This document shows positions 4,773 through 60,530 of a DNA stretch of 64,000 nucleotides, piece after piece. Within the stretch, counting starts at the first letter, position 1, and every line of letters starts with the position of its first letter. The position numbers and the translations under genes are program-made. The notes under the pieces were generated by a model. The model was not told the origin of the DNA. It was given only the letters and a program-made list of their open reading frames with translations, and ran no database searches. Source of the DNA: a plasmid; sequence record NZ_CP069398.1; one strand, 5' to 3'.

Positions 4773-5337
4773 TCTTTACACCTCGTCTATATGGATTTTT
4801 TTCTATCTTTAATTAATCAATGTAAATAAAAGTATATAGATTTCTAATAAGTAAAAGCCACTTGTATACTACAAGTGGCTTTTTGCTACGTTGAATACAC
4901 TAGATAATTCACGTATTATTTCCACCACTATTATAACATAGTTTATGTATCTGTTTAATGCATTTGGATCTTAATATAACTAAAATATGAAACATATGAT
5001 TCAGAACGCGAGACTAACCTTCTATGTTTTATAAACTTATTTCTTCAAATAGACATCCTCTTTGTTATTTAAGTGGGTATGTTCCTTATTCTTATTTAAA
5101 AACAGGACTTTGAATAAGAAAAGGGATAACTACTAAAGCTGTCATCCCTTTTCTTATTCATGGCAAGTGTATAGGTTTTATAACAAGGAAACGAAACATC
5201 TAATCCTACTTTTTACAGTGTCATTTGTTTCTAAGAGTTAGTATGGCGAGCACATAAGGTAAAATACATCCACTATTTACCATACATATACCTCTTCTAC
5301 AATAGGAAACTTAAAAGAAACAAGGAGGTGACACAAC

Positions 5338-5547
5338 ATGGCAAACAACAAAAGCAGCAACAACAATGAATTATTAGTATACGGTGCAGAGCAAGCAATC
5401 GATCAAATGAAATATGAAATCGCGAGCGAATTTGGTGTAAACCTTGGTGCTGACACAACTGCACGTGCAAACGGATCAGTAGGTGGCGAAATCACAAAAC
5501 GTCTTGTACAAATGGCTGAGCAACAACTTGGCGGTGGACGTTTCTAA
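5338..5547 (+). CDS. Alpha/beta-type small acid-soluble spore protein (SASP).
   Basis: 69 aa. EIASEFGV and GGEITKRLV signature. RBS AAGGAGGTG. Confidence 0.9.
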
Positions 5548-5569
5548 TAAAATTTTATAATGATGGCCG

Positions 5570-5602
5570 AAGGAAGAATGGTTTCCCGTTCTTCCTTTTT
5601 TC
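5570..5602 (+). terminator. Rho-independent terminator of the SASP gene (GGAAGAA..TTCTTCC stem followed by a T-run).
   Basis: Hairpin plus TTTTTT seen in sequence. Confidence 0.7.
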
Positions 5603-5682
5603 GTTAGTGAAAAAGGAGGATAATAGCATGAGGGTGCAAGAGATTCTTGTATCGCACCCAATAGCTGGGAAAAATTCAGATT

Positions 5683-6342
5683 TTACGATGAAATTACTTT
5701 TTGAATCTGCTCATCAATATTCCCATTACTTAAGCCTCCGTGATAACAAACCACAGATTCAATATCCAGGTCTAGGTATTTCTTCAAAGAGAGTCGAGCC
5801 TCTTTTATATCCAGTACAGTTGGAACATGAATCCCCTCAATTATTCCGTTTACACTGTACATTGAGTCCCCAGCAATCAGTGTTTTACTCTTTTCCAAAT
5901 AGAGACTGATATGCCCTGGAGTATGTCCTGGAGTATGAATGACACGAATCCCGCCGCAATACGTAAGTTCTTGACCGTCTTTCAAGGTATCATCCACTTT
6001 GCTCTTTGGAGGATTCTCTACGTTCCCGTCTTTCAAAAGAGGTAAATCCCCTTGTATATAAGGCTTATCCAAAACGTGAGCATATACTTTAATATGATTA
6101 TACTCTTGTACTATCTCAGGAAGACTACCTATATGATCTATATCCTGATGTGTCAAAATTATAACTTTTAGTTTGTCGAACGATACTCCTACTTTATCCA
6201 TTGCCACGCGTAAATCTTCCATTTGTCCCGGGAATCCAGTGTCTATTAAAACGGCCATTTCTTGATCCCATAAAAGAGTTGGATGAATAATATATCCATG
6301 AAATTCAAGCTGGAGCATTTCTACCCCTTTAGAAATTTCCAT
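5683..6342 (-). CDS. MBL-fold metallo-hydrolase (metallo-beta-lactamase superfamily).
   Basis: THQDIDH (HxHxDH) motif and downstream His ligands. Confidence 0.8.
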   Translation of the reverse strand: MEISKGVEMLQLEFHGYIIHPTLLWDQEMAVLIDTGFPGQMEDLRVAMDKVGVSFDKLKVIILTHQDIDHIGSLPEIVQEYNHIKVYAHVLDKPYIQGDLPLLKDGNVENPPKSKVDDTLKDGQELTYCGGIRVIHTPGHTPGHISLYLEKSKTLIAGDSMYSVNGIIEGIHVPTVLDIKEARLSLKKYLDLDIESVVCYHGGLSNGNIDEQIQKVISS

Positions 6343-7016
6343 AACTTTAGTCTCCTTTATAATTAGATTTTATTGATGTAGGATAATAGGTTTGACTACA
6401 CCAGAAGGTTGAAAGAATACAGCCAATTTTGCACGTAAAATACTACCATTACGTAGTACCAAAAAATATTCATTATCACACTAACCATCTTCAAATTAAA
6501 TAACATAAACATCATATTAAATTCAGTTTCCTTCTCAAAAGTTCCTGCTATTTTTTATTGTTGAATGAGACATAAGGAAGTAAAAAAGAGAACACCATCT
6601 GAAGAAGGGTTCTCTTTTTTGGGGGCTTCCAATCAGCTTACATGTTTATTGCAAGTTTTTTTTAGATATTTAATTGAGTTGTTTAGATATTTTCCAACCT
6701 TTCATCCATTTCATGAAAAAATGGGCCGTTAGGACAACCCCTAGTATCTATAAGCCAATTACCTCTTACACAATTACCTACCGATCTCTTACTGAAGTAA
6801 GGGGTCTTTATTATTTTTTTGAGTGGGCAGGCAAGCCTACTGCAGTAGATACATAGTATCTAAAGAATTCCGACTCCCTTACCTAATTGGTATCTATTTC
6901 GGTAGCGTAATACATTAACCTTTGCGTAATTGAAGCTACTCTAAAAGAGAGGCTTTTTTAGAAGAATTTTAGGGTTTTAAATCCAAATAACAGGATAATA
7001 TTTACTTACAAAGCAA

Positions 7017-7343
7017 TTGAAGGTTGTAGAAATGGAGGGGAGTAAGTTGCCTAACAAAGAATATCCATACTATTTTATAAAGTTAGGTAAGTTATATTAT
7101 GTAAATGAATCATGTAGAAACGTAAAAAGGAAAGAGATCTCTAGTTACGAATTTACAAATAATGAATTGGTCGCATTTCCCTTTGACACACAATCCATTG
7201 CGAAACAGACTGCAGATGAATGTGGTGGTTATATTGTAGTTAGAAATGCTACATTTGATGATTATATTAGTCAAGGAGAACGTTGGAGTAAGTATATAGA
7301 TTATAATGGGAAAGACATATGGAAACTTTATAATGTTAAGTAA
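7017..7343 (+). CDS. Hypothetical protein with an uncertain start. It lies immediately upstream of the IS21 left end.
   Basis: ORF only. Confidence 0.35.
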   Translation: MKVVEMEGSKLPNKEYPYYFIKLGKLYYVNESCRNVKRKEISSYEFTNNELVAFPFDTQSIAKQTADECGGYIVVRNATFDDYISQGERWSKYIDYNGKDIWKLYNVK

Positions 7344-7531
7344 ATAATAAAATACTTTTACTACTGGTAATCAAACTTATGTAAATAAGTTTCCTATATA
7401 ATATATGTAATCAGCGACTGTAAAATACTCAATAACAGCGATTCCAAATTCCCCAATAATAACAGATAATCGTTTCAAGACAACATCATGGATGGAGTGG
7501 AGAAACGGTGCTGAAGATTGGGGAGTTTTTT

Positions 7532-8770
7532 ATGATTAGAGAATTGTTTCAAAAAGGTTGGACGAAAACAGCTATTGCAGAAGCAACGGGTTTCGATCGC
7601 AAAACAGTCAGTAAATACCTAAAAGATAACCAGTTACCTAAGCGTAAAGGAAGTAAACAGAAAAAAGAAAGCAAATTAACCCCTTACAAACCGTATATAC
7701 TTGGACGGCTTAAAGAGGGTACCACTAATTGCGTAGTCTTATTAGAAGAAATACAAGCAATGGGTTATGAAGGTCAGCTCACAATCTTAAGAGATTTTGT
7801 TCGTCCTCTTCGCCAACAACCAAAGAAACAGGCAACCTTACGGTTTGAAACGCCACCTGGAAAGCAAGCTCAAATGGACTGGGCGTATGTCGGGAAGTAC
7901 TTAGTAAATGATGTGCTGCAAGATGTATATGGATTTATCATGATTTTGGGTTATTCCCGGATGAAATATGTAGAATTCACAACGAATATGAACCTAGAAA
8001 CTTTAATGAAATGCCATATGAATGCTTTCTCTTATTTTAATGGGATACCAGACCAAATCCTTTACGATAACATGAAAACAGTGGTGATCAAGCACAGCCC
8101 AGTGGAAGTTCGTTTTAATCGGAAATTCGAAGATTTCTTGGCTTACTATGGAATTGTGCCAAAGGCCTGCCGTCCAAGGAGGCCTCAAACAAAAGGGAAA
8201 GTAGAAAGAACGGTAAAGTATTTAAAAGATAACTTTTTTCAAAGAAAACATGAACCAACACTGAATGCGTTAAACGAGGATATAAAAGAATGGTTAAATC
8301 AGGTGGCTAATAAAAAGGAAAATCAGACAACAAATGAAGCACCCTTTAAGAGGTTTGAGCAGGAACAGAAGTTCCTGAAGGCCTGGGGGGAAAAACCTTT
8401 ATTTCCTACTTCCCATTGGGAGCATAGAGAGGTTAGTCGAGATTGTTTTATATCATACGGGGGAAAACAATACTCCGTTCCTTATCGTTATGTTGGACAG
8501 ACCGTTAAAGTAAAGGAAACATTAAATCATCATATAGAAATATACGATGAACATGAATGTATAGCAAAACATCCTATTCTTACTGGAAACGCAACGACAC
8601 ATATCCGGATGGAACATTATCAAGGTTTACAGAAGACAGAGATGGGTCAGAAAGAGAAACACATTGAAGGTTTGGCGACCGATGTTTCTCAATCACAAGA
8701 CCCATCCCCTAAAGTAGAGAAACGTCCTCTCGCTGCTTACGCAGCATTAGAAGAAGGTGAACATGTATGA
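7532..8770 (+). CDS. istA: IS21-family transposase IstA.
   Basis: N-terminal HTH and DDE integrase core (KTVVIKHSPVEVRFNRKF). ATG at 7532 with RBS GGGGAG. Confidence 0.9.
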   Translation: MIRELFQKGWTKTAIAEATGFDRKTVSKYLKDNQLPKRKGSKQKKESKLTPYKPYILGRLKEGTTNCVVLLEEIQAMGYEGQLTILRDFVRPLRQQPKKQATLRFETPPGKQAQMDWAYVGKYLVNDVLQDVYGFIMILGYSRMKYVEFTTNMNLETLMKCHMNAFSYFNGIPDQILYDNMKTVVIKHSPVEVRFNRKFEDFLAYYGIVPKACRPRRPQTKGKVERTVKYLKDNFFQRKHEPTLNALNEDIKEWLNQVANKKENQTTNEAPFKRFEQEQKFLKAWGEKPLFPTSHWEHREVSRDCFISYGGKQYSVPYRYVGQTVKVKETLNHHIEIYDEHECIAKHPILTGNATTHIRMEHYQGLQKTEMGQKEKHIEGLATDVSQSQDPSPKVEKRPLAAYAALEEGEHV

Positions 8771-28811: not shown

Positions 28812-28895
28812 GGACTTGTAGCTCAATGGCAGAGCAGCCAGTCGTATTACACTATACAACTTTGGCGTCTTGCAGGTTCAAATCCTGCCAAGTCC
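28812..28895 (+). tRNA. tRNA-like element. The acceptor stem (GGACTTG/CAAGTCC), D-arm (TAGCTCAATGGCAGAGCA) and T-arm (GCAGGTTCAAATCCTGC) are canonical. The anticodon arm carries about 13 extra nt (GCCAG-[20-nt loop]-TTGGC). It is probably a disrupted tRNA gene or a tRNA-derived attachment-site remnant.
   Basis: Manual cloverleaf folding gives 84 nt with no encoded CCA. Confidence 0.4.
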
Positions 28896-28962
28896 TCTCT
28901 TAAAACAATGAATACGTTAAAAATAATAAAAGTTCTTATGATGCTTTAACTATTTTTAAAAA

Positions 28963-42472: not shown

Positions 42473-45283
42473 ATGAAGGATGAGGAAATTCTTAAAAAGC
42501 TACGTGAGTTTTCAGAGTACTTAGATGTTGGAAATATCGTCACCTATATGTTACGGAAAGTTGGATGGGCGTGTATTCAACTTCTTTCGTTTCTAGTGGA
42601 TGGATTGGAAGGAATTACAGATAGTATTTTAGGAATTAAGACATTTTTTAATTCACCTGAAATCCAAGATTTTATTACCAAGATTCAACCTTTTTTATAT
42701 GTATTACTGGCTTTTTCCTTTTTGTATATTGGCTACATGTTGATTATTCAGAAGAAAGTCAATCGTGAACAAATTATGATTAACATTTTTATTTCGATGG
42801 CAGTCTTACTTTTATTAAACACAAGTATGTTAAAGGCAGATAAATTCACTGACCAAGCCATTGAAGCTGTTGATTTAAATGAAAAAGGTACCGTAAGTGA
42901 AAAGATAATTAAAAGTAACATAACAGATGTAGCGCAATTCGATCTTACGAAATGGAAAAGTCCCAAATTAAAAGAACCAAATAAAGTGCCACAAAAAAAT
43001 ATTATGATGATTGATATTACGGAAAAAATTGATGATAAGTTTAAAGTAAATAAAAAAGATACTCTATCAGATGAAGGCCAAAAAATACTCACAAATAAAG
43101 CAGATATTACACCTGATGGAAAAGAAGGATTAGTTGAATTGAATAATGGATGGTTTGATTTCTTTCCAGAACTCTATTACCGATGGTCATGGAACTTCTG
43201 GACAATTGCGGTTTCCCTTTTTGTTATAGGGATGACGTTGTTATTTACCTCTATTAAATTAGCAAAGTTGTGCTTTGAGCTAGGATTTAACTCCATTTTA
43301 GCCCAAATTGTTGCGCCTGCCGATGTAGCAGATGGGCAGAAGTTAAAAGCCGTTTTAAAAAATATCCTGAATACATTCCTTGTAACGATTATGATCTTTA
43401 TATCTATGAAGGTCTATTTGATGGGAACCGTCTTTATTAGCGATAAGCTAGAAGGTATTCCATACCTGATCGCATTGATCGCCTTTAGTATTGCTGTTGT
43501 AGATGGGCCTGTAATGTGTGAACGTCTCTTTGGCATCGATGCCGGACTCAAAAGTGGTTGGGGCGCTCTGGCAGGAGGTTTTGCGATGGCAAAAGGACTT
43601 GAAAGTAGTATTGGCATGATGGGCAGAACCTTAAAAGGAGGAGCCAATCTTGCAAAGGGTGTTGGTAATGTAGGAAAAGGTCTTGGTAGTGGTGCTCTTC
43701 AGACAGCAGCAGGAGTTGGAGGGCTTGGAAAAGGATTAGCTACACAAGGAAATAAGGAAAAACAACCAGCATTGCATGAAGAAATGAAAAAGGCAGGAAT
43801 GGCAGGTGAGAAAGGAAACGTTGCTTCTAAAGGTCAAAACGCAGGAAATGAGCAGAAAGCTCAACAACAGGGATTATCCTCTACTGAAAAACAAGAGGGG
43901 GGCAAAAATGCTGAAGGAAATTCTTCAGAAGGAAAAGGATCAGGACAAGGTACATCTCTACAAGATGAAATGCAAGCAGCAGGTGTTTCTACTGATAGTC
44001 AGGGATCAACTTCCTCTGTAGAAGGTGGAAATACATCTCTACATGATGAAATGCAGGCTTCTGGTTATGGTGAAAGTGCAACTGAAGGTACTGGATCTTC
44101 CGTAGAGGGTGGAAGTGCTTCTCTACATGATGAAATGCAGGCTTCTGGCTATAGTGAAGGTGCAACTGAAGGTACTGGATCTTCTGTAGAAGGTGGAAGT
44201 GCTTCTCTACATGATGAAATGCAGGCTTCTGGTCAGAGTGGAAGCACAAATGGAGGCAGCTCTTCTGTAGGAAAGGCAAGTGCTTCTCTACATGACGAAA
44301 TGCAGACTTCTGGTCAGAGTGGAAGCACAAATGAAGGCAGCTCTTCTGTAGGAAAGGCAAGTGCTCCTCTTCATGGTGAAATGCAAGCCTCTGGTCAGAG
44401 TGGAAGCACAAATGGAGGCAGCTCTTCTGTAGGAAAGGCAAGTGCTCCTCTTCATGGTGAAATGCAAGCCTCTGGTCAAAGTGGAAGCACAAATGGAGGT
44501 AGCTCTTCTGTAGGAAAGGCAAGTGCTCCTCTTCATGGTGAAATGCAAGCCTCTGGTCAAAGTGGAAGCACAAATGGAGGTAGCTCTTCTGTAGGGAGTG
44601 CAAGTACGCCTGTTCATGAAGAAATTCAAACTTCCGGTTACGGCGGAAGTACAAGTGAAGGCAGCTCTTCTGTAGGAAGTGTGAGCACGCCCGTTTATGA
44701 AGAAATCCAAACTTCCGGTTACGGTGGAAGTACAAGTGAAGGCAGCTCTTCTGTAGGAAGTGTGAGCACGCCTGTTCATGAAGAAATCCAAACTTCCGGT
44801 TACGGTGGAAGTACAAGTGAAGGTAGCTCTTCTGTAGGAAGTGTGAGTACGCCTGTTCGTGAAGAAATTCAAACTTCCGGTTACGGTGGAAGTACAAGCG
44901 AAGGCGGATCTTCTGTAGAAAGTGTAAGCTACCCTACACCAACAAGAGAACCTTCTGTTTCTATGCCGACAGGGATGGATCAAGCACAAGCACAAGTGGC
45001 AGCTACACAGGAACCTCGACAAGGAAAACAACGGATTGAAAAAGACACAGTTCCTACTTCAACAGACGATATTCCAATGCCAGAACAGAACCGGATAGAA
45101 ACACGCAATATTGCACAAGTGGTAAAAGATAACTTTAAGGGAGGGGTAGGAAAGGTAAAAGAACGTATTGATAATTCGCAAACAATCCATAAAACAAAAC
45201 GTTCTTATCAAATTGGACGAAATACAGGGCGAGATTTACGAAACCTTGGATCAAAGAAACGAAATAAACCAGAAGAGAAGTAA
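42473..45283 (+). CDS. Polytopic membrane protein, VirB6/ConG/TcpH-like candidate, with a long repetitive Ser/Gly/Glu-rich C-terminal tail.
   Basis: Multiple TM segments over residues 20-330, then about 11 copies of a 28-aa repeat (SLHDEMQASG..GSSSVGKASAP). Confidence 0.55.
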   Translation: MKDEEILKKLREFSEYLDVGNIVTYMLRKVGWACIQLLSFLVDGLEGITDSILGIKTFFNSPEIQDFITKIQPFLYVLLAFSFLYIGYMLIIQKKVNREQIMINIFISMAVLLLLNTSMLKADKFTDQAIEAVDLNEKGTVSEKIIKSNITDVAQFDLTKWKSPKLKEPNKVPQKNIMMIDITEKIDDKFKVNKKDTLSDEGQKILTNKADITPDGKEGLVELNNGWFDFFPELYYRWSWNFWTIAVSLFVIGMTLLFTSIKLAKLCFELGFNSILAQIVAPADVADGQKLKAVLKNILNTFLVTIMIFISMKVYLMGTVFISDKLEGIPYLIALIAFSIAVVDGPVMCERLFGIDAGLKSGWGALAGGFAMAKGLESSIGMMGRTLKGGANLAKGVGNVGKGLGSGALQTAAGVGGLGKGLATQGNKEKQPALHEEMKKAGMAGEKGNVASKGQNAGNEQKAQQQGLSSTEKQEGGKNAEGNSSEGKGSGQGTSLQDEMQAAGVSTDSQGSTSSVEGGNTSLHDEMQASGYGESATEGTGSSVEGGSASLHDEMQASGYSEGATEGTGSSVEGGSASLHDEMQASGQSGSTNGGSSSVGKASASLHDEMQTSGQSGSTNEGSSSVGKASAPLHGEMQASGQSGSTNGGSSSVGKASAPLHGEMQASGQSGSTNGGSSSVGKASAPLHGEMQASGQSGSTNGGSSSVGSASTPVHEEIQTSGYGGSTSEGSSSVGSVSTPVYEEIQTSGYGGSTSEGSSSVGSVSTPVHEEIQTSGYGGSTSEGSSSVGSVSTPVREEIQTSGYGGSTSEGGSSVESVSYPTPTREPSVSMPTGMDQAQAQVAATQEPRQGKQRIEKDTVPTSTDDIPMPEQNRIETRNIAQVVKDNFKGGVGKVKERIDNSQTIHKTKRSYQIGRNTGRDLRNLGSKKRNKPEEK
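43957..44915 (+). repeat. Tandem minisatellite with an 84-bp period and about 11 copies, encoding the 28-aa repeat of the VirB6-like tail. There are three sub-variants (GYGESATEGTG, GQSGSTNGGSS and GYGGSTSEGSS types).
   Basis: Seen directly. Examples at 44037-44120 and 44121-44204 are near-identical. Confidence 0.85.
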
Positions 45284-49429: not shown

Positions 49430-51010
49430 CAACTGAAAAATGAAAGAATGTAAAGTTATCAAAGGGCAATTTACTAAAAAAAAGCATCACGAAACTAGAC
49501 CAGTAACGAATGTTATTTACTGGAAATTAATTGAAAGGTAGCGATGACAAGTTTTATGTCATATTTTCACGCCCCTTTCTGGCGTAAAGAGTTGGTGACT
49601 GCGTAGTAGCGCATCCACCAATCGCACGAGTTTTCTTGCGGTTAGAACGAGTGCACGTTTGTGTTGATGTTTTGGTACTTCACTGTACTTTTTCACGTAG
49701 TAATCCCGGTAATCCGGAACTTGCCTTCGTACGGAGTTGGCGGCTTCAACTAAGTAATATCGCAAGTAGTGGTTACCGTTACGTGATAGGGACGTGTCTT
49801 CGGCAGTAAAGCGCCCAGACTGATGCTTTCGCCAGTATAGACCTGCGTATTTCGCTACTTTAGTTTCATCATCAAACCGGTCTATTTGGCCAATTTCAGC
49901 TATGATACCTGCAGCGAATACGGGACCAATTCCAGGGATGGATTCAAGCGTGTGTGTCAATCCAGCCATCAGTTTTTTGATCGCTTTATCAATTTCTTTT
50001 ATCTGCTTTTGGAAGGTGCGAATGACCTCGATCGAGGTCCCTAGTATTACATCCATAGAATCTTCCACTACTTTGTCCAAGCGATAAGAAGATCGCACGG
50101 CTTTCTGAATGGAGGTTGCCACACATTTCGGGTCACCAAATCGGTTTTTCCCTTTCTCTTGAAGGAACGCTGCCAGTTCCTCCAGTGGTAGGTGGGCTAG
50201 TTCTTCCAAGCTGTATTTCTCTAAGAAAAGCTCCATCATTGCGTTACCGAAGACTGAGGAGTCTACTTCTTGAGAGAAAGTATTACACTTATAGCTTAGG
50301 TGTTGAAGAAAATGCTGCTTTTCTTTCGTCATCATACGGATGAGCTGGTAACGGGACCGAGTCAGTTGTTGTAAGGCCACGTATTGGCTTTCTTTGACCA
50401 CTGACATTTGGTTACGTCCAAAACGTAAGTAATCCGCAATGACAAAGGCATCGATTTCATCTGTTTTGTTCATATCCGAATAGCTTTTCTTAAAATTAGC
50501 TATTTGTTTAGGGTTCATGACAAACACCTTGGCACCGAAGACTTTTAAGTCTTCATCATGATGGAGAAACATCGACGGGTGAAAGCTATAGACCGATGTA
50601 GATTCTAAGCCAATCTTTAAGACGTCAATCTCTTGATCGTCTATGCAGTGTAATAAACGTTCTTTAAGCAACGTCGCGCCTGGTAAGTCATTGGTGACGG
50701 TAAAGGCGTTCAGCTTTTCTCCTTCACCATTTAAAATGCATACTTTCATATCAAACGAACTTACATCTAAACCAACAAATAATCTCACGGGAGAGACCTC
50801 CTTTCGATTTAGAATCACTTGGCATTTCCTTGGACGTCTCGAGATATCTCTAGTGTGTACGCCGACCAACAACCTCGTGTATCAGAGCTTCCCTGCATTC
50901 GAAAGCCGCCATAGAGCTACTACCCTCTAGGTTCAAATGACAGGCTGCTCAGCCTGCGAGTAGGGAGTCCCGCGCGTTCACTGAGAAACAGTCTTATATT
51001 GTGGTTAATC
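49430..51010 (-). mobile_element. IS110-family insertion sequence with approximate boundaries (the family lacks terminal IRs). It interrupts the T4SS gene block between the hydrolase gene and the downstream transfer genes.
   Basis: Transposase inside. It is the only minus-strand gene in an otherwise plus-strand operon. Confidence 0.45.
49559..50788 (-). CDS. IS110-family (DEDD) transposase. Start taken at the GTG giving VRLFVGLDVSSFDMKV.
   Basis: N-terminal LFVGLDVS (IS110 DEDD_Tnp motif) and C-terminal IPGIGPVFAAGIIAEIG (HhH). Confidence 0.85.
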   Translation of the reverse strand: MRLFVGLDVSSFDMKVCILNGEGEKLNAFTVTNDLPGATLLKERLLHCIDDQEIDVLKIGLESTSVYSFHPSMFLHHDEDLKVFGAKVFVMNPKQIANFKKSYSDMNKTDEIDAFVIADYLRFGRNQMSVVKESQYVALQQLTRSRYQLIRMMTKEKQHFLQHLSYKCNTFSQEVDSSVFGNAMMELFLEKYSLEELAHLPLEELAAFLQEKGKNRFGDPKCVATSIQKAVRSSYRLDKVVEDSMDVILGTSIEVIRTFQKQIKEIDKAIKKLMAGLTHTLESIPGIGPVFAAGIIAEIGQIDRFDDETKVAKYAGLYWRKHQSGRFTAEDTSLSRNGNHYLRYYLVEAANSVRRQVPDYRDYYVKKYSEVPKHQHKRALVLTARKLVRLVDALLRSHQLFTPERGVKI

Positions 51011-52773: not shown

Positions 52774-52794
52774 TAAGCGACTTTCTTTGATATC

Positions 52795-52845
52795 ACGGTT
52801 TTGCTAGGCTCTGCCTAGCCTATCACACCCTGTGATAGCAAAAAC
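52795..52845 (+). promoter_or_regulatory. Nested inverted repeats (GCTAGGC-TCT-GCCTAGC and TATCACA-CCC-TGTGATA). Candidate nic-site or relaxase-binding region of oriT.
   Basis: Seen directly. Located 60 bp upstream of the mobC-like gene. Confidence 0.5.
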
Positions 52846-52907: not shown

Positions 52908-53165
52908 ATGGATATTCTTTTACGAGATATTGATCCAACTGCCGTAAAAAAAATAGATGAGATTGCAAAAGAAAAAAAGATTTCTCGTCAAGAATTCTTA
53001 AAAGGTCAGGTTGAAACGCTGGCTGTTTTTCAAGAACAAAAAGTTCGTGAAGCAGAACTCGAAAATATCATCTATAAAAATATAAAGATGATGGAAAAAT
53101 GTGCAGTGGCAATTGAAACAATCAATGGATTTATTCGAGATATGACGGGGGAAGATGAGGAATGA
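52908..53165 (+). CDS. Ribbon-helix-helix relaxosome accessory protein (MobC-like).
   Basis: 85 aa. KISRQEFLKGQVE RHH signature. Stop overlaps the relaxase start. Confidence 0.55.
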   Translation: MDILLRDIDPTAVKKIDEIAKEKKISRQEFLKGQVETLAVFQEQKVREAELENIIYKNIKMMEKCAVAIETINGFIRDMTGEDEE

Positions 53166-54358
53166 GTACGCCTTCTGTTATTCCAGGCGTGGTGTTGAAA
53201 ACAAAATTTGTTACATCCGATAAAAAGGCTTTTCAAGATTATGTTGATTATGTAGATCGTGATGATGCGAAAAAAGAACAGGAAGCCCACGAGAAACTAT
53301 TTACTCTTTATCAAGATTATATGGATAACCCTGATAAGGCATCTTCTTTGTTCACCCACCAATCGAATCAATTGAATGACGAGGAGAAAAAGCAATTAAA
53401 AAAGTTGTTTGAAAAAGCGCAGAAAAATAACAGTATTATGTGGCAAGATGTTATCACATTTCATAATCCTTGGCTCCAAGAAAATGGTTTATACGATGCT
53501 GATACTCATACAGTGGATGAGAAAAAATTAATGGATATTACCCGTCAGTCTATGAAGGAAATGCTTAAAAGGGAAAGGTTAAATGAGTCGGCTGTTTGGT
53601 CAGCTGCCATTCACTACAATACGGGAAACATTCATATTCATATTGCGACAGTAGAACCACAACCTACTCGTGAACGAGGCAAAAGAAAGCCTAAAACGTT
53701 GGATGCGATGAAGTCAACAGTCGTGAATCAAATTTTAAATCGAGGTGAGCAGCACCAGAAAATAAATGAGTTAATTCGAAAGGATATGGTCGGAAAAAAG
53801 AAGCAGGATTCTTCATTAAGGTGGAAGAATCGTGACATTCAACCATTGTTTCTACAAATCTATAATCATCTTCCAGAAGATAAAAGGCAGTGGCAATATA
53901 GTTACCGAACATTAAAACCAATGAAGCCATTTATTGATGTGTTGAGTCAAAAATATATTGAAAAGTATCATCGTAATGAGTACCAACAATTACTTGGAAA
54001 ATTAGATAAGGAAGTAGAGGAATTAAAGAAAGCCTATGGAGAAGGAAAGGTTGATGAGAAACGATATAAGGACTATAAGCAAACGAAAATTGATGATCTT
54101 TATAAGCGAATGGGCAATGCTTTCTTAAAAGAAATGAAAGATTATGATAAGCAGCAGCAACAGATTAAAAGAATGATAGAAAGTAAGAAACAATCAAAAC
54201 GTCCTGCAAGTTTTAACCAAAAGGTCTCTATGCATTTTGCATTAAAAAAGATGGAGCGAGCGTTTAAATCAGAATATGAAAGTTGGAAAAACCAACAACA
54301 TTATGAACGATTACAAAAAGAAATTGAACATAATCGTCAGGAAGAGAGGAGTTATTAA
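53162..54358 (+). CDS. Conjugative relaxase (Relaxase/Mobilisation nuclease family, MobP-like).
   Basis: His-triad motif HYNTGNIHIHIATV. N-terminal catalytic domain followed by a Lys-rich tail. Confidence 0.7.
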   Translation: MSTPSVIPGVVLKTKFVTSDKKAFQDYVDYVDRDDAKKEQEAHEKLFTLYQDYMDNPDKASSLFTHQSNQLNDEEKKQLKKLFEKAQKNNSIMWQDVITFHNPWLQENGLYDADTHTVDEKKLMDITRQSMKEMLKRERLNESAVWSAAIHYNTGNIHIHIATVEPQPTRERGKRKPKTLDAMKSTVVNQILNRGEQHQKINELIRKDMVGKKKQDSSLRWKNRDIQPLFLQIYNHLPEDKRQWQYSYRTLKPMKPFIDVLSQKYIEKYHRNEYQQLLGKLDKEVEELKKAYGEGKVDEKRYKDYKQTKIDDLYKRMGNAFLKEMKDYDKQQQQIKRMIESKKQSKRPASFNQKVSMHFALKKMERAFKSEYESWKNQQHYERLQKEIEHNRQEERSY

Positions 54359-54843: not shown

Positions 54844-55119
54844 ATGTTTTTTAACAAAGATTTAGTGTTAGCTTCGATTAAAGCTGTAGGAGAGGATCAT
54901 GCCATTGTACAGTATCAAGACAAAGAAATAGAGGTGAATTTAAGTCCAGAAGAAGCGAAGGAGTTTCATCAATATGTGGTGCATCAAGAAAATATGTTGG
55001 TGCCAATGAATATTAAAACACAGAAGCTTTTTGTGGATTTAGAGGAACCTTGGTATGAACAAGAATTAGAAGAGCTTAAGGGGATCTCCTATCAAGAAGA
55101 GGGGGATGAAAATGAGTAA
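54844..55119 (+). CDS. Hypothetical protein (91 aa).
   Basis: ORF with RBS AAAGGAGG. Confidence 0.45.
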   Translation: MFFNKDLVLASIKAVGEDHAIVQYQDKEIEVNLSPEEAKEFHQYVVHQENMLVPMNIKTQKLFVDLEEPWYEQELEELKGISYQEEGDENE

Positions 55120-55798
55120 AACGTATGCGAAAAAATCTGTGGAAGATAAGCGTAAAGAGGTTGAAGAGTTAACGAAAGGGATGGAACAAAAAGTAGAGCA
55201 GCATTTTCATTCTGCCGATGAATTAAAAGACTATTTATCTTTTATGGGTAAGTTTTATCAATACTCCATGTCGAACACAGCTCTTATTCAAGAACAATTC
55301 TTTGGTGCTCAAGCTGTTGGCTCATTTAAGTTTTGGAAAGATAAAGGTTTTTCTGTTAATAAAGGGGAGAAAGGCATTAAGATTCTTGTGCCAAATAAAA
55401 CGGTTCCTAAATTTAAAGATGAAAATGGGAAATTAAAGTCCATTAATAAAGCCACTCCTCAAGAAAAGAAGCTAATTAAAGAGGGGAAAAAAGAAGTCAC
55501 TCAAGGCCGACTGTATTTTTCAGTCGGCCATACGTTTGATATTAGCCAGACGAATGCGAAAGCAAGTGATTTACCTAAGATATTCCCAAATCGTTGGTTA
55601 GAAGGCAACGTGGAGGACTACAAGGCGCTTCATAAAGGAATGGAAGCCATTGCCGAAAAGAATGGTATTTCCATCATTGCTCCTAAAGAAGAACTAGGCA
55701 GCGCAAAAGGCGTGTGTTATCCATTAACGAAGGAGGTTGCGTTAAATCCTCGTAACTCTGAACGTCAAAATGTAAAGACGCTTCTTCACGAAATGACT
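55106..55798 (+). CDS. ArdC-like antirestriction/ssDNA-binding protein, exon 1 (ArdC N-terminal DUF1738-like domain). The gene is split by a group II intron. Join 55106..55798 with 58389..59054 for a 452-aa protein.
   Basis: NTALIQEQFFGAQAVGSFKFWKDKGFSVNKGEKGIKILVP matches the ArdC N-domain. The ORF-track frame reads ...LLHEMT, then GTGCG begins at 55799. Confidence 0.6.
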
Positions 55799-58388
55799 GT
55801 GCGTCCATAAGGATGTGTTTGGGATTGCTGTCGTAGCAAACAGCTGATGTGGTCATAACATCATAAGGTCAAAGACTTATTGATATTCTTAAATATCAAG
55901 ACACTCGTGGTGGGAAACCATCAGGGGGACAATAGCATGTCTATAAAGCCACAAGTTACTGGCGTGTTACAGTACGACTGGATGGCAAGACCAAAGTAAT
56001 AGACAAGGATGAAAGCTATACTGCTTAAATGATAGCCAGAGGGGTTATATCGTGGACCATAGTAAACAACACGTGAAATGCTATGCAAGTGGGGATTTCA
56101 ACGGATGCGTCATACGTTGAAATATGACCTCCCACTGACCAACATCGATAAGATGATAAATGGCGAAAGTCACATCCGATACTATTACAAGCTTCCCTGC
56201 ATAATCTAAATGGAGATTGTCTAAGTCAATAAGCCCTTACGGGCTATGTTCATTGGGAACTGAAAAATTGATATGACAACGGAGTCTTCGTACTAGTTTG
56301 AGATAGGGAAAGCCTATCACGCTAACATCAGATAACGCATGTTAGATCATAGCTGTGAAGCTAGGATGGCGAAGGAAGACAGTTAACTGAATCCAATATT
56401 ATAAGAAGAAGGAGCGAGAGGCTCTATGAGAAATCCTCAAGTGGTATTGGACAATCTAACGAGTAAGTCCAAGGATGAAAACTACAAGTATCAAAGAGTT
56501 TACAGAAACTTATACAATCCTGAGTTTTATCTTATGGCATATGATGAAATCTACCCTAACCCTGGTAACATGACTAAAGGGTCAGATAATAAAACAATCT
56601 ATGGCATGAGTATGAAGAGAATTACTAATATTATTGATTCTCTCAAGGACGAAAAGTATCAACCGACTCCAGTAAGAAGAACCTATATCCGCAAAAAACG
56701 TGGTAATGGCAAAAGGCCACTTGGTATTCCATCATTTGATGACAAACTGTTACAAACTGTAGTCAAATATATTCTGGAAAGTATTTATGAAAGTTCGTTC
56801 AGTAACAAATCCCATGGGTATCGGCCAAACAAAAGCTGTCATACGGCTATTAAGCAAATTGCTGACACATTTAATGGAGTAAAGTGGTTTATAGAAGGAG
56901 ACATAAAGGGCTTCTTTGATAACATAGACCATTCTATTTTAATTGATTTACTTCGCAAAAGAATAAAAGATGAAAAGTTCCTAAGGCTTATTTGGAAATT
57001 TCTTAAAGCAGGATATGTAGAGGACTGGAAATATAATAATTCATACAGTGGTGTGCCTCAAGGAGGGATTATTAGTCCTATCTTATCTAATATTTACCTT
57101 AACGAATTAGATAAATTCATCGAAGAATTCCAACATAAATTCAATAAAGGTAAAAATAAGGCACAAAACCTTGACTACAAAAAACTGCACGCAAAAAGTA
57201 TGCGTCTTAAAAAGAAATTAAAGGACAAAGTCGCTAAAGGAACTCTCAAAGAAGGCGAACGTGAAGAAATTATTGGTTATATCAAAGAAGCGAATAGTAG
57301 AAAAATGAAATTACCTTCAAAAGATCCTATGGATCAAAACTACAGAAGACTGAAATACGTCCGGTATGCGGACGATTGGCTAATTGGCATTATTGGCAGT
57401 AAGGAAGATGCGGTCAGAATCAAAAAAGAACTAACTGAGTTTATCAGGAACAAATTGAAACTTGAACTTTCACAAGAAAAGACACTTATTACAAACGGTA
57501 GGAAGTTTGCTAGATTTCTAGGCTATGACATTGCCATCAGCAGAAATCAACAACCAAAACCGACTTCAAGAACTGCAGGGGAACAAATGAAGGTTCTTTC
57601 ACGTTCTAACTCTGGAACAGTCTCCATTTACATGCCAAAAGAGGCTTGGGTTAGTAAACTTATAGAATATAGGGCTATAAAAATGGAGGGAGCTAACTGG
57701 AAACCAATGCATCGTAGGGTACTGGTCAATAACGATGATTTGGAGATTCTCACTCGTTATAACGCTGAAATTAGGGGCATGTACAACTATTATAGGCTAG
57801 CACTAAATGTAAGTGGACTCAACAAGTTTAAATATTTTATGGAATACAGTTTATACAAAACCTTTGCCAATAAATATAAAACATCTATAAGCAAAATAAA
57901 AAATAAATACTGCATTAACGGAGTCTTTGCGGTTAGATACAAAACGAAGAAGGATCATAGAACTCAATACTTGTATAATGATGGATTTAAACGAAATAAT
58001 TCTATAAAGACAGACCACATTAACACAGACCTGCCTATCAGTAAATTTGACTTTGGTAGAACTAGTCTCATTTCAAGGCTAAAGGCGGAACGATGTGAAT
58101 GGTGCCATAAAGAAAATGTTGAATTAGAAATTCATCATGTAAGAAAATTGAAGGACTTGAAAGGTAAAAAGCTATGGGAAAAAGCAATGATAGCCAGAAA
58201 CCGCAAGACAATAGCACTTTGTGCTTTAGGAAAAGGGAATGACTGTCATCGCAAACTCCATGCTGGACTGTTAGATTGAAGTAAGTTAATGGCGAGCCGT
58301 ATACATGGAGACGTGTACGTACGGTTCTGGGGGGGATGCTTGGGAACCTACCATAGTAATATGGCAAGGCACTGGGTATCTACCCTAC
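55799..58388 (+). mobile_element. Group II intron (2590 nt). 5' GTGCG, domain V GAGCCGTATACATGGAGACGTGTACGTACGGTTC at 58293-58326, domain VI ending ..CCCTAC. Encodes an RT/maturase/HNH protein.
   Basis: Canonical 5' end and a textbook domain V seen. Removal fuses two ORFs in frame. Confidence 0.8.
56426..58279 (+). CDS. Group II intron-encoded protein: reverse transcriptase (YADD in RYADDWLIG), maturase X domain and C-terminal HNH endonuclease (CEWCH..HHV..C..C).
   Basis: 617 aa. RT motifs 0-7 recognisable (RPLGIPSFDDKLLQ; SGVPQGGIISPILSNIYL). Confidence 0.9.
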   Translation: MRNPQVVLDNLTSKSKDENYKYQRVYRNLYNPEFYLMAYDEIYPNPGNMTKGSDNKTIYGMSMKRITNIIDSLKDEKYQPTPVRRTYIRKKRGNGKRPLGIPSFDDKLLQTVVKYILESIYESSFSNKSHGYRPNKSCHTAIKQIADTFNGVKWFIEGDIKGFFDNIDHSILIDLLRKRIKDEKFLRLIWKFLKAGYVEDWKYNNSYSGVPQGGIISPILSNIYLNELDKFIEEFQHKFNKGKNKAQNLDYKKLHAKSMRLKKKLKDKVAKGTLKEGEREEIIGYIKEANSRKMKLPSKDPMDQNYRRLKYVRYADDWLIGIIGSKEDAVRIKKELTEFIRNKLKLELSQEKTLITNGRKFARFLGYDIAISRNQQPKPTSRTAGEQMKVLSRSNSGTVSIYMPKEAWVSKLIEYRAIKMEGANWKPMHRRVLVNNDDLEILTRYNAEIRGMYNYYRLALNVSGLNKFKYFMEYSLYKTFANKYKTSISKIKNKYCINGVFAVRYKTKKDHRTQYLYNDGFKRNNSIKTDHINTDLPISKFDFGRTSLISRLKAERCEWCHKENVELEIHHVRKLKDLKGKKLWEKAMIARNRKTIALCALGKGNDCHRKLHAGLLD

Positions 58389-59054
58389 CATGCCAAGTTG
58401 CATACGACTGAATCACGAGCAAACTATACGGATGCGGAAAGAGAATTTCAGGCGGAGATGACAGCCTATACGGTTTCGTCTTATTTTGGCATTGATACGA
58501 GTGAATATTCTCTAGGGTACTTGTCACACTGGACGAAAGGAAAGAGCTTTGAAGATAAAACCAAGCTTTTAAAAGAAGTACATGAAACGTCCGTTGGCTT
58601 TATTGAAACAATAGAAGAAACGTTGGTAAAAGAACGAGAAAAAAACCAGTCACCAGAAAAAAACGATGAAAAACAGCAGCAAGCAGATCCTCTTTCTTCT
58701 CAAAACGTGCATGAGAAAATGAAAGAAGGTTATGAGAACTATAAGCAAAAGCAGCAACAGGAATCGTCACAAAATGTAGATAGTATTTTAGATCGTGTCA
58801 CGGCTGAAGAGAAATATTATTCAACCAAAACACAAGCGATCAAAAATGGATGGATGACAAAAGAAGAAGTCGTGAAACTTGAACATCAGATCGATTCGAA
58901 CGTCACTAAAAACGAGAAGGGAGTCATCAATGGTCAAGTTCAGGAACAATCTCTTACTTTTCAAGAACGTGTTGAAGTGGGTAATCACATGCAATTCCAA
59001 AAACGTACAGGCACCGTCAAAAAGAAAAAAGAAGAACAGGAACTCGAAAGGTAA
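58389..59054 (+). CDS. ArdC-like protein, exon 2 (metalloprotease-like domain followed by a Gln/Lys-rich tail). The spliced junction reads LLHEMT|HAKLH, that is HEMTH.
   Basis: In-frame continuation from 58389. The 5' part of ORF-track entry 58305..59054 is intron domain VI. Confidence 0.6.
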   Translation, partial: HAKLHTTESRANYTDAEREFQAEMTAYTVSSYFGIDTSEYSLGYLSHWTKGKSFEDKTKLLKEVHETSVGFIETIEETLVKEREKNQSPEKNDEKQQQADPLSSQNVHEKMKEGYENYKQKQQQESSQNVDSILDRVTAEEKYYSTKTQAIKNGWMTKEEVVKLEHQIDSNVTKNEKGVINGQVQEQSLTFQERVEVGNHMQFQKRTGTVKKKKEEQELER

Positions 59055-59483: not shown

Positions 59484-60530
59484 TTGGAGGAATATATGAT
59501 GAAAAAAATTACGTCTCTTTCAAATGGCCAATTTAAAACGTTTATTTCCGATAAACGAGAACTCAAGAAGTTTATGAAACACCCACAAAATGAAAAGATC
59601 GAGGCAGGTTGGGCAAATATCAGTGGTGAACAGCTGCAAGACATTCCTTCTGGTGCTGTTTACTTAACACAATCAGCTATAGGGGAAGAAAAACCGCAGG
59701 TTTTGTTTGTTTCCACCGATGAAAGAGGGCAAAAACAAGCCTATGAAAGTGAAGCAACACTTGATTTTTTAAAGAGTCATGATGTGAACCCTGTTTTAGA
59801 GAAAGGTCGAGAAACGCAGCTCAAAACGAGCTATATTACGTTTTTACAGGCTCATGATAAAGAGAAACCTCAAGATATTGATAGCATGTTAGCCCGTGTG
59901 AATGCAGAAAACGATTATGTCATGTTGAAATCAAGTGCCTTAAAGGAAAAGCAGTTCACCTCTGACCAATTGAAAGGTATGGAGAATGAGCTTTCTCATC
60001 AGTTTCAAGCACGTAAACAGACACAAGAAAAGGACCGATATCAAGAAGATTACAAACAAGAAGTACTAGAAGTTATGCAGCAGCCTAGCGAAGAAACACA
60101 GTATAAGCAGCTATTTAAACAAAGCTTGTTAGCCCAATTAGGCATATCAGATGAAAAAGATTCTTCTAAAGGAGTGAAAAAGGAAGCTGAATCAGAAAAG
60201 ACTCCTGTCGAAAAGCAGCTCAAGCAAGAAACACCTCAAGAGAAAGAGCAGCGTTTGGCCAAAATGAAGGAGTTTGAACAAAAGCATTCCTTTGATAAGG
60301 TGTACAAATTGAAAAAAGAAGTGCTGCAGGAATTAAAAGAGCTCAATTTGACTGATTCTCAACGTGAGAAATTAACCAAGCTTGAAAAGGCTTTAGACAC
60401 GGAGAAAAAGGATCATGACAAGCAGAAAAAAGAAGAGAAATCACAGAATGGATTTACGAAGTTTTTTGCACGGAATAGTGGAGCAAATTCTTCGAGAAAA
60501 CAGAAAGAGACACAAGAAATGGAACGTTAA
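59484..60530 (+). CDS. Hypothetical protein (348 aa, coiled-coil-rich C-terminus).
   Basis: ORF with RBS TGGAGG. Confidence 0.5.
   Translation: MEEYMMKKITSLSNGQFKTFISDKRELKKFMKHPQNEKIEAGWANISGEQLQDIPSGAVYLTQSAIGEEKPQVLFVSTDERGQKQAYESEATLDFLKSHDVNPVLEKGRETQLKTSYITFLQAHDKEKPQDIDSMLARVNAENDYVMLKSSALKEKQFTSDQLKGMENELSHQFQARKQTQEKDRYQEDYKQEVLEVMQQPSEETQYKQLFKQSLLAQLGISDEKDSSKGVKKEAESEKTPVEKQLKQETPQEKEQRLAKMKEFEQKHSFDKVYKLKKEVLQELKELNLTDSQREKLTKLEKALDTEKKDHDKQKKEEKSQNGFTKFFARNSGANSSRKQKETQEMER

Follow-up and report, generated by a model that had tools for sequence, protein, structure and literature searches.

A group II intron with an LtrA-like protein divides the HExxH codons in an ArdC-like gene of a conjugation plasmid of the Priestia megaterium type

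Results

An intron within the HExxH codons

We analysed a 64,000-nucleotide stretch of plasmid DNA (NZ_CP069398.1; hereafter the window) in which a first-pass annotation, made from the letters alone, had placed a group II intron inside the HExxH codons of an ArdC-like gene. The window comes from a Priestia megaterium-type conjugation plasmid, and 78 records in PLSDB match the region. Its transfer module encodes a TraG/VirD4-type coupling protein, a lysozyme/NlpC-P60 hydrolase and a MobL relaxase. The ardC-like gene lies directly downstream of the relaxase gene in the same orientation and is followed by genes for a DUF3991-Toprim protein and an Mrr-like nuclease. Table 1 lists the coordinates of the split gene and of the parts of the intron.

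The intron is 2,590 nt long and runs from GTGCG (55799-55803) to CCCTAC. In the RNA its ends read GUGCG and UAC, in agreement with the GUGYG and AY termini of group II introns. Exon 1 comprises 231 in-phase codons, the last of which are CTT CTT CAC GAA ATG ACT (LLHEMT), and exon 2 opens with CAT GCC AAG TTG CAT (HAKLH) and stays in frame to its stop codon. The insertion is in phase 0 between codons 4 and 5 of HEMT/H (a slash marks the insertion point throughout), and the zinc-binding motif HEMTH is encoded in the ligated exons only. Translation probably starts at ATG 55112 (MSK...), which gives a protein of 450 aa, as in most homologues, and has a ribosome-binding site (GAGGGGG) 6 nt upstream.

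These boundaries are exact because an intron-less relative, plasmid pELP1.24a_2 (NZ_CP127876.1; L001 in our numbering of comparison sequences), joins the equivalent of 55798 (L001 3801) directly to that of 58389 (L001 3802). The splice sites are also unambiguous, since the nucleotides beside the two boundaries differ. The expected junction after exon ligation is CACGAAATGACT/CATGCC, and the 36 nt that span the junction in L001 and in L002, a P. megaterium NCT-2 plasmid, are identical to the ligated exons of the window. The exon and intron coordinates of the first-pass annotation, together with the in-frame resumption at HAKLH, are confirmed to the nucleotide by the L001 empty site.

Table 1 Features of the split ardC-like gene and its intron (window coordinates)
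Feature	Position	Strand	Description
Exon 1, ArdC-like gene	55106..55798	+	ArdcN domain, N-terminal half of M78-type zincin, codons H-E-M-T; 95% identity to uninterrupted proteins
IBS2	55785..55790	+	UUCACG, positions -14 to -9, overlaps (L)-H-E codons; 6 Watson-Crick pairs with EBS2
IBS1	55793..55798	+	AUGACU, positions -6 to -1, the two variable 'xx' codons (Met-Thr); 5/6 pairs with EBS1
Group II intron	55799..58388	+	Empty site in L001 and L002, Rfam match, fold z = -10, covariation
EBS2	56072..56077	+	CGUGAA, terminal loop 56065..56078 of a 7-bp hairpin; stem kept by compensatory changes
δ and EBS1	56107..56113	+	δ = G 56107, EBS1 = CGUCAU 56108..56113; loop GAUG-NNNNNN-A of hairpin 56096..56122
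Intron-encoded protein	56426..58279	+	617 aa; reverse transcriptase, maturase (X), HNH endonuclease; YADD; PF00078, PF01348, PF21368
Domain V	58294..58327	+	GAGCCGTATACATGGAGACGTGTACGTACGGTTC, 34-nt hairpin, AGC triad; Rfam alignment
Domain VI	58330..58386	+	Branch-point A (58382) in a bulge, 7 nt from the 3' splice site; Rfam structure line
Exon 2	58389..59054	+	Second His of HExxH (δ' = C at 58389), remaining zincin domain, variable C-terminal tail; stop 59052-59054

Ribozyme and intron-encoded protein

The 3' part of the intron was matched by Rfam model RF00029 at 58292..58388 over the full model (positions 1-77; 63 bits against a gathering threshold of 40; E = 5e-10). The match contains a domain V with an AGC triad and a domain VI whose bulged branch-point A lies within the 7-8 nt from the 3' splice site expected of group II introns. 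The first-pass annotation had recognized the domain V hairpin, which is present, but had put it at 58293-58326, one base too far to the left. The 5' 627 nt of the intron fold with a minimum free energy well below that of shuffled sequences (z = -10.1). Of 155 consensus pairs, 71 carry compensatory double changes across six relatives. By fold z-score and compensated pairs, the intron has the multi-domain structure (domains I-IV) of a group II intron, conserved far beyond chance. The class-specific Rfam D1-D4 models gave no match over 55700-58500 at E <= 1; because RF00029 alone matched, we make no model-based call of the subclass.

The intron-encoded protein (IEP) has its Shine-Dalgarno sequence and start codon inside a conserved stem-loop resembling domain IVa. 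It aligned along its full length with LtrA (5g2x_C; E = 2e-154, 518 bits), compared with E values of 1e-30 to 1e-42 for reverse transcriptases (RTs) of IIB and IIC introns, and this large difference places it in the LtrA-like, mitochondrial-like (ML/IIA) lineage. It shows the RT, X, D, En (HNH) organization of that class, with Pfam matches to RVT_1, Intron_maturas2 and an AI2M-like HNH domain, and it scored 279.7 bits against TIGR04416, under the 300-bit cut-off of that family. The ratio of non-synonymous to synonymous divergence (dN/dS) between relatives is 0.07-0.17; the IEP is intact and under purifying selection.

Exon pairing and EBS1 variation

Both exon-binding sites (EBS) find their intron-binding sites (IBS) at the 3' end of exon 1, EBS1 with 5/6 and EBS2 with 6/6 positions paired. 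EBS1 of the window pairs with AUGAC at -6 to -2, and the U at -1, a synonymous third position, stands opposite C. EBS2/IBS2 pairing is retained in L005 by way of a G-U pair. The putative δ nucleotide, G 56107 directly 5' of EBS1, faces a C at +1 in every allele inspected, including two ectopic sites, as in the δ-δ' pairing of IIA introns, where IIB introns have EBS3/IBS3. As the δ-δ' pair is invariant across alleles, proof by covariation is impossible.

EBS1 proved to be hypervariable between introns that are otherwise 95-98% identical: all four differences between the window and L024 in 56090-56189 fall within it. Across 9 alleles EBS1 covaries with IBS1, the pair at position -4 being G-C, C-G or A-U depending on the allele (Table 2). 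A cross-matrix and a register control both favour the assignment, with pairing peaking at the proposed register. The dipeptides read by EBS1 (LA, LT, IT and MT) are variants that are present in the host protein family. For L007, in which EBS1/IBS1 pairing is 5/6, we found no convincing assignment of EBS2. EBS1 of the ectopic copy L006 fits a HEITH site at 5/6, which is consistent with descent from an ardC-resident intron.

Table 2 Relatives of the intron, by identity of their IEP to that of the window
Copy	Source	IEP tier	Insertion site	EBS1	Perfect target	Fit to own site
Window		At least 85%	HEMT/H	CGUCAU	ATGACG (MT)	5/6, mismatch at -1
L005	Contig labelled Sphingomonas	At least 85%	HEIT/H	GGUGAU	ATCACC (IT)	5/6, mismatch at -1
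L024	Metagenome	At least 85%	HEMT/H	AGUUAG	CTAACT (LT)	Poor, 4/6 paired, one G-U
L029-32	P. megaterium	At least 85%	HELG/H	UGCUGA	TCAGCA (SA), or TTAGCA (LA) with one G-U	5/6, 1 G-U
L033	B. pseudomycoides	At least 85%	HELA/H	UGCUAG	CTAGCA (LA)	6/6, 2 G-U
L006	P. endophytica chromosome	At least 85%	PNPOx-like gene, ectopic			
L034/35	P. megaterium	At least 85%	DUF8208 gene beside coupling protein, retargeted	CAUUUC (L034)	GAAATG (new site)	6/6 Watson-Crick
L007	Paenibacillus	60-65%	PolyVal-type ArdC remnant, FHELI/H			
L036/37	Bacillus salipaludis	60-65%	Complete canonical ArdcN+PolyVal ArdC, FHEMI/HSTGH			
L038/39	Metagenome	60-65%	ArdcN-M78-LPD25 protein, LLHELA/H	UGCUAA (L038)	TTAGCA (LA)	6/6, 1 G-U
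L040	Metagenome	60-65%	Apparently elsewhere			

A lineage found at the same codons

Relatives of the intron were gathered via IEP similarity and via the junction pattern. The HExxH position is occupied in five of the seven distinct insertion alleles in the clade with IEPs at least 85% identical to that of the window, and in three of the four alleles in the 60-65% tier. These comparisons indicate that the intron belongs to a site-specialised lineage, a finding that goes beyond the first-pass annotation. More distant relatives, at 58% or less, interrupt a coupling-protein-like gene, a VirB4-like ATPase gene, a SNF2-like helicase gene and the gene for a small Bacteroidales transfer protein, labels that were read from the spliced translations and not tested against Pfam; one such relative, whose IEP is 56% identical, sits in a coupling-protein-like gene of the B. 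cereus plasmid pBFR_2.

Scanning metagenomes for the junction pattern returned 8 stretches, among which L024 (Ga0268255_10005262, oriented 2937 onward), with an intron 98% identical to that of the window, is the sole true same-site copy. The other stretches were rejected as chance CAYGAR matches at the sites of other introns. Two further hits of the pattern, L027 and L028, lie on viral contigs. A megablast search of PLSDB with the intron found no close copy, just 70% RT segments on B. cereus plasmids.

L005 is a 16-kb contig (JARUXA010000043.1) deposited as Sphingomonas sp. PsM26 that is 93% identical to the Priestia plasmid region; most likely it is a contaminant or a mis-binned contig in the Sphingomonas assembly. 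The copy in L034/L035 lies in a low-complexity part of its DUF8208 gene, whose placement beside the coupling-protein gene matches that of ORF 42473..45283 in the window.

Synonymous divergence (dS) is lower in the intron than in the surrounding exons, at 0.07 vs 0.35 between the window and L024 and 0.23 vs 0.49 between the window and L005. These values fit a spread of the intron among alleles that had diverged beforehand.

The ArdC-like host protein

The spliced product matched the Pfam ArdcN domain (PF08401) at residues 19-115 with 40.3 bits (about 40-43; cut-off 22.6), which bears out the earlier placement of a single-stranded DNA (ssDNA)-binding ArdcN domain in exon 1. It also matched Peptidase_M78 (PF06114) at residues 183-268 with 34.2 bits, and this match appears only after exon ligation. 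The canonical PolyVal peptidase domain of ArdC (PF18818) stayed below threshold (16.5 bits; cut-off 27.5). The protein has both the ArdcN domain and the HExxH motif of the ArdC family; because its C-terminal domain is M78/ImmA-IrrE-like and not PolyVal, we judge from these profiles that 'ArdC-like' is right for the host gene and 'ArdC' wrong.

Uninterrupted homologues number more than 1,000. The best of them aligns over the whole protein at 95% identity, and the homologues carry the name ArdC-like ssDNA-binding domain-containing protein or ImmA/IrrE metallo-endopeptidase. In a set of 21 homologues that reaches down to 57% identity, H228, E229 and H232 never vary, and the consensus around the motif is LLHE[L/I/M][A/T]HAKLH. 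The first-pass annotation had called for matching the intron to Rfam group II models with definition of its EBS/IBS pairings, and for comparison with intron-less ardC homologues; the former yielded RF00029 with EBS1, EBS2 and δ assigned, and in the latter HExxH is kept and the two halves form a single ORF. Its proposals that a group II intron with an RT/maturase/HNH ORF sits within the HExxH codons of an ArdC-like gene, so that only ligated exons give HEMTH, and that it targets a conserved catalytic codon block are fully supported, the invariant residues and the repeated occupancy of the site in relatives being part of the evidence.

Host exons overall show dN/dS of 0.05-0.15, and exon 2 shows 0.10-0.15 between intron-bearing alleles. 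Purifying selection on exon 2 is what one would expect of a translated exon and so of an intron that splices.

Sequence and profile searches of the PDB with the spliced protein, which covered the ArdC structure, returned no match at E <= 1. An AlphaFold model built from a 21-sequence alignment had a mean predicted local distance difference test (pLDDT) score of 57, and Foldseek searches of the PDB with it gave non-significant matches only (E >= 0.04); the weak matches, to IrrE/PprI and to an M. tuberculosis regulator, are unusable for deciding membership of the ArdC fold. No NCBIfam family matched the host protein, and tblastn found no paralogue of the spliced protein within the window.

The first-pass annotation had also held that antirestriction depends on splicing. 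We know of no antirestriction activity for the ArdcN+M78 family. An unspliced message would yield a 234-aa product (232 aa from ATG 55112) that retains the whole of ArdcN and ends HEMTVRP, and the protease activity of R388 ArdC is dispensable for antirestriction (PMC7213743); the dependence on splicing is not supported.

Surrounding transfer region and other introns

Nor is there support for the earlier description of the host gene as a leading-region gene that is transferred early. The gene lies downstream of MobL, and a candidate origin of transfer (oriT) lies upstream at 52786-52842. In plasmids of the Bacillus pLS20 family, ardC belongs to the establishment genes and has its own dedicated regulation (PMC8708921), and by analogy a leading or establishment role for the ardC-like gene is plausible. 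The candidate oriT is a nested inverted repeat (TTTGATATCAC GGTTTTGCTAGGCT ... AGCCTATCACACCC. GTGATAGCAAA) located ~70 nt upstream of an 85-aa ORF that has no Pfam match and precedes the MobL relaxase gene.

Other group II introns occupy neighbouring positions on related plasmids. On L002 (3124-5806) and L003, both P. megaterium NCT-2 plasmids, a different 2.68-kb intron, with an IEP 30% identical to that of the window, is inserted at the equivalent of window 55120/55121, after the third codon (MSK/TYA) of the ArdC-like gene, and the HExxH site there is empty. A third NCT-2 plasmid, L004, carries another intron (~4985-7787; Rfam group-II-D1D4-5 match, 640-aa IEP, 27% identical) at the equivalent of window ~59500, right where the next gene after ardC begins (ORF 59484..60530). 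L005 contains, in positions 1-204, the end of a second, unrelated group II intron at N-I/HIHIA of the MobL relaxase His motif; its 3' end is similar to that of the intron in L004, and the equivalent window site, 53630/53631 in gene 53162..54358, is empty. Across sister plasmids, there are four different intron sites within about 6 kb of the relaxase-ardC operon.

Further features lie elsewhere in the window. An IS110-family transposase gene (49559-50872, minus strand) stands between the cell-wall hydrolase and relaxase modules. ORF 42473..45283 contains an identical 27-nt motif at 44375, 44456 and 44537, with exact 81-nt spacing, which suggests that the encoded 936-aa protein beside the coupling protein has 27-aa tandem repeats. 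At 28812-28896 (plus strand) an Rfam tRNA match of 48 bits has normal acceptor, D and T arms and a 22-nt insertion that replaces the anticodon loop. ARAGORN found no tRNA in the whole window and did not confirm it; the element may be tRNA-like or a disrupted tRNA.

Proposed mechanism and alternative explanations

We consider it very probable that the element is a functional, mobile LtrA-like (mitochondrial-like, IIA-type) group II intron that splits the HExxH codons of an ArdC-like gene in a relaxase-proximal operon. According to this model, the operon would be transcribed and the 617-aa IEP translated from its own start within domain IV and bound to the intron RNA, with the splice sites aligned by EBS2/IBS2, EBS1/IBS1 and δ/δ'. 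The branch-point A at 58382 would attack the 5' splice site, and exon ligation would restore CAC GAA ATG ACT/CAT (HEMTH) and the 450-aa protein. The freed lariat-protein particle could then reverse-splice into intron-less alleles with the identical 36-nt site, where the HNH domain would nick the opposite strand and the RT would copy the intron in. The homing site would be set by the protein motif, with IBS2 and nucleotides +1 to +3 coinciding with codons that do not vary, (L/F)-His-Glu and His, and EBS1 would read the two variable codons and diversify with them. In this way the lineage may be maintained in ArdC-type genes and move from one to another, even between two metallopeptidase families.

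Several observations weigh against this interpretation. We infer splicing and retrohoming in vivo, as well as the biochemical role of the host protein, from DNA sequence. The assignment to class IIA draws on the relatedness of the IEP and the position of δ, with no Rfam D1-D4 match to add to them and a δ-δ' pair that never varies. The exon nucleotide at -1 is mismatched with EBS1 in both the window (U opposite C) and L005; none of the 78 related PLSDB plasmids carries the window intron at the HExxH site, so occupancy is low; and the L024 IEP is frameshifted (495 aa after a 7-nt insertion) and its EBS1, of a HELTH type, misfits its HEMTH site. Because of this frameshift and poor match, some copies of the intron must be decaying, and L024 itself looks like a copy in decay or one just after a mismatched transfer. 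The same mismatch, decayed copy and rarity, together with the L007 host gene, a truncated remnant adjoining a transposase gene, would fit an insertion that is dead in the window, so inefficiently spliced that the ArdC-like gene is a pseudogene yielding at most a 232-234-aa ArdcN fragment ending HEMTVRP. We regard this as improbable. The window IEP is full length with its YADD and HNH motifs and evolves under constraint, the ribozyme structure is kept by compensatory changes, both exons are intact and in frame, and exon 2 has remained under purifying selection between alleles whose introns have diverged by dS 0.07-0.23. Single mismatches at -1, at a synonymous site, are moreover common among natural introns.

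How the intron reached its present sites is a separate matter. The low-divergence tract shared by the window and L024 extends ~300 bp into both exons, and homologous recombination or co-conversion would fit this tract at least as well as clean retrohoming. The two sequences form a mosaic, with 0-4 differences per 100 nt from ~55490 to 58690 (0-9 in the intron), rising to 8-24 per 100 nt across most of exon 1 (55090-55489) and, from 58690 on, in distal exon 2; in the first 90 codons of exon 2, dS is 0.04 vs about 0.34 elsewhere. P. megaterium strains, moreover, hold several related plasmids together (at least three in NCT-2). Such low-divergence flanks mean that homologous recombination or co-conversion contributes alongside RNA-guided insertion. 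That the intron has spread mainly by recombination or gene conversion of intron plus flanking exon, instead of by RNA-mediated retrohoming, is possible but on balance doubtful, since copies occur without flanking homology at unrelated sites (the PNPOx-like chromosomal gene of L006 and the DUF8208 gene of L034/35, where EBS1 has been rewritten to pair 6/6 with the new site) and the lineage occupies two ArdC families that are not orthologous and have no more than about 17 nt in common at the site. For these ectopic and cross-family copies, targeting must have been RNA-guided. Neither route excludes the other. There is next to no likelihood that the flanking ORFs are independent genes, an ArdcN-only protein and ORF 58305..59054, with a retroelement merely between them, even though ORF calling lists 55106..55810 (234 aa) and 58305..59054 (249 aa) separately and exon 2 alone has no Pfam match. 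Intron-less plasmids fuse both halves seamlessly into one ORF, the single-chain homologues cross the junction with HExxH invariant, and the M78 match exists in the spliced product only; we rejected two separate genes as refuted by the empty-site alleles.

A very improbable extension of the functional-intron model is that splicing of the intron gates an establishment protein: in a naive recipient the first transcripts would give the ArdcN-only product (232-234 aa, HEMTVRP end), and the full-length zincin protein would follow once the maturase accumulates. If true, the gate would supply two isoforms of different activity in a fixed temporal order, and selection on a position that separates the domains would partly explain why the lineage keeps to the HExxH boundary in two ArdC families.

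Discussion

The closest precedent for this intron is Ll.LtrB of Lactococcus lactis (pRS01/sex factor) and Ef.PcfG of Enterococcus faecalis. These are LtrA-encoding IIA introns that lie at a conserved position in relaxase genes, HLHN/H or HIHN/H, and spread by conjugation (PMC5072309). The window intron resembles them in encoding an IEP that is LtrA-like over its full length (RT-X-HNH) within domain IV, in its size (about 2.5-2.6 kb), in residing in a conjugation-module gene of a Firmicute plasmid, and in being inserted in phase directly before the His codon (CAT) of a catalytic metal-binding His motif, with related alleles invaded at the same conserved position. It differs in that its host is an ArdC-like ssDNA-binding/zincin protein with the motif HExx/H, whereas theirs is a relaxase, and in that its lineage spans M78-type and PolyVal-type families and shows EBS1 diversity across near-identical copies. 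Splicing and mobility have been demonstrated for Ll.LtrB, whereas the window intron is known from its sequence alone.

Other systems share parts of this arrangement. On pAW63, group II introns B.th.I1 and B.th.I2 reside in a Tn916 ORF14-like gene and a VirD4 homologue (PMC1196294). These introns, like those of other B. cereus-group plasmids, lie in conserved domains of conjugation genes on Bacillus plasmids, but the host genes and sites are different and no ArdC-type host was reported there. With the ArdC of R388/pSa the window protein shares an order of domains, ArdcN (over the Pfam cut-off) and then a zincin domain with HExxH, and the intron relative in L036 splits a bona fide ArdcN+PolyVal ArdC at the same codon boundary; the window protein differs in its M78/ImmA-IrrE-type C-terminal domain, its sub-threshold PF18818 score and its long extra C-terminal tail. 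Like inteins and group I introns in active-site motifs, the window intron appears to be a selfish element that persists by targeting codons unable to drift. Those elements differ in class and mechanism, and recognition by the window intron would be largely by RNA base-pairing, leaving a readable EBS1 signature. Our literature searches turned up no earlier description of a group II intron in connection with ArdC, antirestriction or HExxH motifs. What is new here is the host gene family and the legible record in EBS1; the mechanism and the strategy of the intron are known.

There are also practical consequences. Since EBS1 accounts for nearly all the differences among many near-identical copies, the system could serve to measure the rate of retargeting and the trade-off that mismatches impose between splicing and homing. 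It further carries a warning for annotation, because genes split by such introns get called as two fragments or as pseudogenes.

Taken together, the locus would be a natural example of a bacterial group II intron that survives by homing to codons its host cannot change. RNA pairing and protein recognition appear to be placed on the invariant His-Glu...His codons, and EBS1 appears to evolve with the two codons that are free to vary. ArdC-type establishment genes would thus join those for the relaxase, the coupling protein and Tn916 ORF14-like proteins among the conjugation genes colonised by LtrA-like introns.

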